Of a DNA stretch of 20,975 bases, positions 20,774 through 20,975 are shown piece after piece. Each line of letters starts with the position of its first letter. Within the stretch, counting starts at the first letter, position 1. The position numbers and the translations under genes are program-made. The stretch lies in UHGV virus genome UHGV-0216266; one strand, written 5' to 3'. The notes beneath the pieces are model-generated. The model was not told where the DNA came from. It worked only from the letters and a program-made list of their open reading frames with translations, and did no database searches. Origin of the DNA: a virus.

Positions 20774-20836
20774 ATGCTTGGTAAGGTATTTTTTGTGGTT
20801 TTGTCATGTTCTTTGTTATTAAACCCACTAGCTACC
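20774..20836 (+). pseudogene. 5' end of an ORF interrupted by IS1 (identity unknown; sits where int is expected)
   Basis: ATG at 20774 with a strong GGGAGG Shine-Dalgarno 15 nt after the cI stop. Encodes [21 protein letters not shown] (hydrophobic), then the reading frame runs into the IS1 inverted repeat beginning at 20837. Confidence 0.3.
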
Positions 20837-20975
20837 GGTAATGCTGCCAACTTACTGATTTAGTGTATGATGGTGATTTTAAGGTGCTTGCGTGGCTTCC
20901 ATTTCCATCAGATGTCCTTCCTGCTCCGCTACTGAAGGCGTGGTGCGTAACGGCAAAAGCACTGCCGGACATCAG
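20837..20975 (+). mobile_element. IS1-family insertion sequence, terminal ~139 bp (partial, continues beyond the window)
   Basis: 20837-20859 ggtaatgctgccaacttactgat matches the IS1 terminal inverted repeat (GGTGATGCTGCCAACTTACTGAT / GGTAATGACTCCAACTTATTGAT from memory). It is followed by the conserved IS1 leader and the insA start. Confidence 0.85.
20892..20975 (+). CDS. insA: IS1 InsA (transposition repressor / N-terminal part of InsAB transposase), 5' partial
   Basis: GTG at 20892, then [27 protein letters not shown]. This matches the IS1 InsA N-terminus (zinc ribbon CPSC...). Truncated by the window end. Confidence 0.75.

Follow-up and report, generated by a model that had tools for sequence, protein, structure and literature searches.

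It is highly probable that the DNA analysed here, the whole 20,975-nt stretch of the virus genome UHGV-0216266 (hereafter the window), carries a simple insertion of IS1 in a ydcA-like gene located between the repressor gene cI and the integrase gene int, and that int itself is intact. That int is expressed independently under SOS control and excision would be unaffected is a somewhat favoured reading of the sequence. The structural and functional explanation taken together is considered likely. The prophage is a 186/P2-like (Peduoviridae) prophage of E. coli integrated next to rcdA. The IS1 event is incidental; the LexA box found at int is the more interesting of the two.

IS1 and the interrupted gene behind cI

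The left 139 nt of IS1 form the end of the window (20837..20975, plus strand), with insA oriented in the same direction as cI and int. The left inverted repeat, GGTAATGCTGCCAACTTACTGAT, is read in the sequence at 20837-20859 (plus strand), and the promoter-like site CTGCCA-16-TATGAT inside the left repeat was located by promoter scan at 20844-20871. The insA gene starts with GTG at 20892 and runs on the plus strand to the window end, and its 28 codons match Pfam Zn_ribbon_InsA (8.9e-15). The terminal 139 nt are identical at every position (139/139) to the annotated IS1F of phage PPompW_EH2246 and show 88.5% identity to the IS1 of phage P1. On the other side of the junction, positions 20100-20836 are identical to IS1-free E. 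coli prophages (737/737), and a three-way alignment revealed a clean switch of partner exactly between 20836 and 20837. What could be expected from a chance match is far exceeded. The IS1 end reported at the window end in the original prediction is thus real, and the positions given there for the repeat and for the insA GTG all hold.

The IS1 share inside the window is 139 nt; the remainder of the element was obtained from a 100%-identical public contig. This contig of 2.23 Mb, JBAMEV010000002.1 of GCA_037023045.1 (hereafter L023), was found via the 804-aa replication protein of the window. It is identical to window positions 4994-20975 at 15,982 of 15,982 bases, runs on past the window end, and carries a 29-aa ORF and an IS1 transposase gene between cI and int. 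From the 16-kb identity, the genome of the window and L023, which is a separate record, very likely represent the same clone. A complete IS1 of 768 bp is present at L023 5805-6572, with both inverted repeats (the left repeat in the window and the right one in L023 match at 19 of 23 positions). Its insA (91 aa) is intact, the A6C frameshift motif AAAAAAC occurs at position 307, and the insB' frame is open. The 167-aa gene-caller product of this element matches PF03400 DDE_Tnp_IS1. The element is complete and apparently functional, with a left end of IS1F type, and in L023 the IS1-like sequence is not merely the short fragment that it might have been. Assignment to IS1F outright was ruled out; the copy is a mosaic in which identity to IS1F is limited to the first 156 nt, and over its full length it shows 93.5% identity to the IS1F reference. 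Many E. coli genomes have copies of this very element at 100% identity.

Extension past position 20975 in L023 also yielded the other IS1 end and the 9-bp target-site duplication that had been anticipated. The 9-bp sequence CTAGCTACC, whose left copy is at 20828..20836 of the window (plus strand), is repeated after the right end of IS1 in L023. It flanks both ends of the element there and occurs as a single copy in the IS1-free E. coli KSC64 (hereafter L001). Downstream of IS1, L023 and KSC64 are identical at 1499 of 1500 positions, a region comprising the remaining part of the ydcA-like gene, the spacer, int and rcdA. The int gene of L023 is intact, encodes a 350-aa protein identical to the Int of strain KSC64, and has its ATG 326 nt beyond the right IS1 end (9 nt of duplication and 317 nt). 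The insertion target is AT-rich, with 35% GC compared to 52% for the window. AT-rich targets are usual for IS1.

The immunity repressor gene cI (189 aa; 20189..20758, plus strand) is intact. It extends from the ATG at 20189, with an in-frame GTG at 20183, to the TAG at 20756-20758, and ends 78 nt before IS1. The CI protein matches Pfam Phage_CI_repr (2.8e-33) and Phage_CI_C (2.7e-27), and the identical protein WP_001047320.1 is named 'phage repressor protein CI' in RefSeq. A promoter-like sequence, TTAACA-17-TATAAT (11/12), was also seen on the minus strand at the 3' end of cI (20726-20754), directed antisense into cI. It is present in IS1-free relatives as well and could be a chance occurrence in AT-rich DNA.

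The interrupted ORF begins with ATG at 20774, 15 nt after cI, behind the ribosome-binding site GGGAGG read from the sequence at 20763..20768 (plus strand, 5 nt before the ATG). As predicted, IS1 truncates it after codon 21, leaving a remnant at 20774..20836 (plus strand). The resulting fusion ORF consists of 21 native residues followed by GNAANLLI from eight IS1 codons, with the stop at 20861-20863. In the IS1-free L001, the order is cI, 15 nt, a 192-nt gene, 188 nt, int (350 aa), rcdA and ybjJ. Comparison with IS1-free relatives, the check proposed earlier, allowed reconstruction of the interrupted gene (63 aa; L001 4675-4866) as a member of the YdcA family. The reconstructed protein scores 114.6 bits against the NCBIfam equivalog NF007463 (cut-off 93). 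The identical 63-aa product has an entry for PF27300 YdcA and is named 'YdcA family protein' in RefSeq; the Pfam search run here returned no match for the reconstructed protein. It falls into PHROG 6000 (3e-34), a phage family of unknown function, and the function of chromosomal E. coli ydcA is also unknown (PMC7642389). A defence role was considered and rejected, PADLOC having given no match of the ydcA-like gene to defence models. The suspicion that an ORF with such a hydrophobic N-terminus is no integrase was thus well placed, since NF007463 and PF27300 mark it as a YdcA-family gene. The accompanying expectation of int as the next gene behind the repressor does not apply here, where a 63-aa ydcA-like gene follows cI and int lies 188 nt further. 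As a caution, this rule of gene order fails to hold across P2/186-like phages.

The 63-aa protein reads as a signal peptide, with the n-region MLGK and a hydrophobic core, followed by a Cys-rich mature part. Cleavage is probably after T-Y-A and before RNYPC, as predicted from the sequence. A lipoprotein N-terminus (VLSC) was rejected, since the Cys is residue 12 and the mature part begins near R24 in the family alignments, following T-Y-A. IS1 is located two to three codons before the predicted cleavage site, and the remnant comprises most of the signal peptide. Because the element precedes this site, nothing of the mature YdcA-like protein can be made. The allele is null; the complete coding sequence is absent from the window, which holds only codons 1-21. 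Separately, the reconstructed protein showed a weak but significant match (E = 3e-5) to a Legionella Dot/Icm chain (PDB 7muc and related entries). That chain is Cys-rich, 124 aa long, and contains twice the shared motif C..K.GG(I/V).(H/Y)C...G..VCN(D/N)G.

The interval between cI and int is occupied by variable cargo of 0.2 to 1.7 kb among the relatives. It consists of ydcA alone in KSC64, of ydcA and a gene for a 443-aa P-loop NTPase in 23CRST044, of genes for hypothetical proteins of 314-323 aa (323 aa in CFT073), and of a gene for a 558-aa SNIPE-associated protein in DG351-2 and the isolated phage vB_EcoM-813R9. In K139-like P2 relatives of Vibrio, a hotspot has been described between the same two genes (PMC9122126), and variable accessory slots are known in P2 relatives (PMC13586616). 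In E. coli AH21 (L016, NZ_CP081711.1; 1305-2505), an IS5-family element, ISKpn26, ends at CTAG, 5 nt from the IS1 site, and fil, cII, apl, cI and the 5' end of the ydcA-like gene are deleted beside it. This is a second, independent IS hit in the same gene, accompanied by clear decay of the prophage.

The region upstream of int

A conserved block is present upstream of int, at L001 4977-5054 and equivalently at L023 5479-5556 (minus strand), about 1.0-1.1 kb beyond the window end. Within it, the sequence TTGACA-17-AAAAAT, which matches the promoter consensus at 10 of 12 positions, is located 25 nt before the int ATG and is kept in L023. The spacer of this promoter-like site is filled by a match to the LexA box, CACTGGTTATACATACAGTA, of 23.3 bits (L001 5006-5025; L023 5508-5527). 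The box is outside the window and intact with IS1 present.

LexA boxes were scored with a matrix derived from 23 known sites of E. coli, with the weakest training site as the threshold. The training boxes range from 13.2 to 27.0 bits with a median of 19.7, and the int box is above this median. In 8.7 kb of L001, CACTGGTTATACATACAGTA was the sole match. As controls, 10.6 kb of phage 186 gave the annotated p95 LexA site only, and 9.6 kb of P2 gave no match. P2 is not SOS-inducible. In the 21-kb window, the scan detected only a double box at 14867-14901, and none of 100 shuffles of the window reached 23.3 bits. The double box consists of the overlapping LexA boxes TACTGTAAATATAAACAGTG and CAGTGGTTATGTATACAGTA before a 62-aa ORF and a DinI-like (Tum-like) gene, which form a Tum/DinI-like operon at about 14640-14860 on the minus strand. 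Its position at this operon marks the prophage as a 186-type SOS-inducible phage.

The box at int is maintained in all 80 viral contigs that carry this Int, 48-52 nt before the int ATG and in 11 sequence variants; one other match to the matrix was found in 333 kb. When the 110 nt upstream of int were compared at 86 loci, they fell into 33 sequence variants, among which the interval from cI to int had no fewer than five different gene contents. All 33 variants keep ATGTATG-N12-14-ATACA-TTGAC-(A/C)-CTG-N10-CAG-T-(A/T)AAA(A/T)T. Homology of the int cassette to other immunity types and to isolated phages sets in about 60-80 nt ahead of the int ATG. The palindrome ATGTATG-N12-CATACAT, located upstream of the promoter-like site, was considered as an arm-type site for Int and rejected, the motif not recurring near attR.

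The retention of the LexA box in 80 of 80 contigs and across different upstream cargo, together with the consensus and matrix matches, suggests that int probably has its own SOS-controlled promoter. A search of the literature for a LexA box at int of P2/186-like phages returned nothing relevant. For the 186/P2-like family at the rcdA site, the sequences give about even odds to a broader proposal: int would have been detached from the cI operon and would be driven by a LexA-repressed promoter of its own, whereby the cargo slot would be free to vary and an IS in it would be tolerated.

These features bear on the earlier suggestion that the prophage might be cryptic and excision-defective. With int intact and a conserved promoter-like site and LexA box upstream of it, this suggestion is not supported. 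Of the situation named as arguing against it, an intact int just beyond the element with independent expression, the first part is seen in L023, where a 350-aa int is found 326 nt beyond IS1, and the second is inferred. The cryptic-prophage idea is possible only via a polar effect on read-through from cI to int. In such a scheme, IS1 cuts int off from the promoters of the cI operon, polarity starves the cell of Int, and the prophage is locked in though int is intact. Strong polarity in either orientation is a classical property of IS1 insertions, as this scheme needs. A simple scan of IS1-free relatives detected no terminator between cI, the ydcA-like gene and int, making read-through plausible, and a simple scan for an intrinsic terminator inside IS1 was likewise negative. 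In addition, both 186 and P2 transcribe int with the repressor gene from the lysogenic promoter; in P2, repressor and integrase genes form one operon (PMC3936717), and in phage 186, cI and int are in the pL/pE lysogenic operon with the cI stop overlapping the int start. Against this, the promoter-like site and LexA box at int are kept in every cargo context and remain intact after the IS1 insertion, and variable cargo of up to 1.7 kb is hard to square with a strict dependence of int on read-through from cI. A prophage locked in by polarity is thus judged unlikely.

Rarity of the insertion and state of the prophage

The genes cI, ydcA-like and int are contiguous in 593 of 5426 complete E. coli genomes, and 513 complete E. 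coli genomes match the window up to position 20836 at 99.6-100%. No matching genome continues into IS1, and the IS1 junction is found in 0 of the 5426. In all of 80 related viral contigs, the interval from cI to int is free of IS1. Exact-pattern scans gave no match to the left junction in viral, species-representative genome and metagenome contigs, nor to the predicted right junction in genome and metagenome contigs, and contigs sharing the very common cI protein were IS1-free in all places. The insertion is private to one clone. The event, in which IS1 entered a non-essential accessory gene, is ordinary and of a kind already known, and as such the finding matters very little: one more IS1 hop into a non-essential prophage gene.

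The remainder of the prophage was assessed by ORF length. The ORFs for tail fibre, baseplate, lysis, head, terminase, portal, replication and the switch match in length the annotation of an intact relative; the comparison covers the window only, which leaves out the tail-sheath-to-ogr half and attL. At the left edge, 22 nt separate the window start from the stop of the tail-fibre gene (1-1540), which is complete and codes for 505 aa; a protein look-up of this exact product returned no other record. The hotspot between portal and replication genes (12828-14990) contains SieB (12828-13373), an unannotated ORF of 141 aa (13824-14249) and the Tum-like operon. Contigs L021, L022, L025 and L027 share the exact replication protein, and several have large internal prophage deletions; examples are a terminase cut short beside the tail fibre and an ORF that fuses capsid and sheath. 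This prophage lineage is often found decayed.

Since the window ends inside IS1 and its own right side is unseen, the element could in that genome mark a deletion, an inversion or a composite structure, with int and attR lost or displaced. The IS-linked decay at the same gene in AH21, with ISKpn26 5 nt away, and the large internal deletions in several contigs with the same replication protein would be in keeping with such a rearrangement. In L023, however, which is identical over the shared 15,982 nt, the insertion is simple with a perfect 9-bp duplication, and the remaining prophage and rcdA are undisturbed; we regard a rearrangement in the window's own genome as very improbable. Mis-assembly, in which IS1 would have been joined to the prophage contig at a repeat with no insertion, could be invoked because just 139 nt of a multicopy element stand at the window end, as is typical of short-read contig ends, but it is excluded for practical purposes, with a negligible residual probability, by the join at exactly the first base of the IS1 inverted repeat and by an independent long contig in which the junction recurs together with the opposite IS1 end and the target duplication.

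Consequences and relation to known systems

IS1 transposed into codon 21/22 of the ydcA-like gene with generation of the 9-bp duplication. The product left is limited to 21 signal-peptide residues and eight IS1-encoded ones, with cI untouched and int physically untouched. Upon DNA damage, Int would be induced together with the LexA-controlled Tum/DinI-like antirepressor operon, and with IS1 located 264 nt (in addition to the 9-bp duplication) upstream of the int -35 hexamer, SOS-triggered excision would be left intact. Read-through from cI may be needed for wild-type int as well, and IS1 would diminish it. Since the simple scan found no terminator from cI to int, such read-through may ordinarily contribute to integration following infection, a stage at which LexA is active. 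Through its polarity, IS1 would lessen read-through from the lysogenic promoters (pL/pE) through cI into int, and this reduction could lower the supply of Int when progeny phage establish lysogeny. Any phenotype is more likely in the establishment of lysogeny by progeny phage than in excision. Judged from these sequence features, the insertion probably does not cripple the prophage and is most likely largely harmless.

The LexA box at int is shared by hundreds of prophages of E. coli and by isolated phages, and should be of moderate interest for phage biologists. If the proposed control is true, DNA damage would switch on the Tum-like antirepressor and the integrase together. It would also offer a simple account of the Int supply at induction and of the variable cargo between cI and int.

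As to the element itself, the insertion shares the features of the IS1 family (IS1F/IS1A-type, 768 bp): 23-bp terminal repeats starting with GGTAATG, a promoter inside the left repeat, an N-terminal zinc ribbon in insA, the A6C -1 frameshift, insB', a 9-bp duplication and an AT-rich target. There is no mechanistic difference from the family; what sets the insertion apart is its site, absent from the 5426 complete E. coli genomes. The interrupted gene belongs by the equivalog cut-off to the same family as YdcA of E. coli K-12 (PRK10040; PF27300; PHROG 6000). Unlike K-12 YdcA, the copy in the window is phage-borne, directly behind cI, and likely expressed in the lysogen. The cI-int interval holds varied cargo in the same manner as the accessory and defence slots of P2-like phages, although, unlike their defence cargo, the ydcA-like gene matches no known defence model (PADLOC).

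The lysogeny module resembles that of coliphage 186 (pL-cI-int-orf69) in having the same two CI Pfam domains and a Cox/Apl-like excisionase-repressor, and CII, Fil and the LexA-controlled Tum/DinI-like operon are also shared. In phage 186, the cI stop and the int start share a base, and no LexA box is present near int. Here, in contrast, cI and int are split by the cargo slot with its ydcA-like gene and by a 188-nt spacer containing the promoter-like site and the LexA box. In LexA-repressed recombinase promoters, such as those of integron integrases, and in p95-tum of 186, a 20-nt CTG-N10-CAG palindrome overlaps the core promoter, as the candidate operator here overlaps the promoter-like site, and the int box CACTGGTTATACATACAGTA closely resembles the phage's own Tum-operon operator, CAGTGGTTATGTATACAGTA. 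Unlike in those recombinase promoters, the candidate operator described here is at the int gene of a 186/P2-like prophage.
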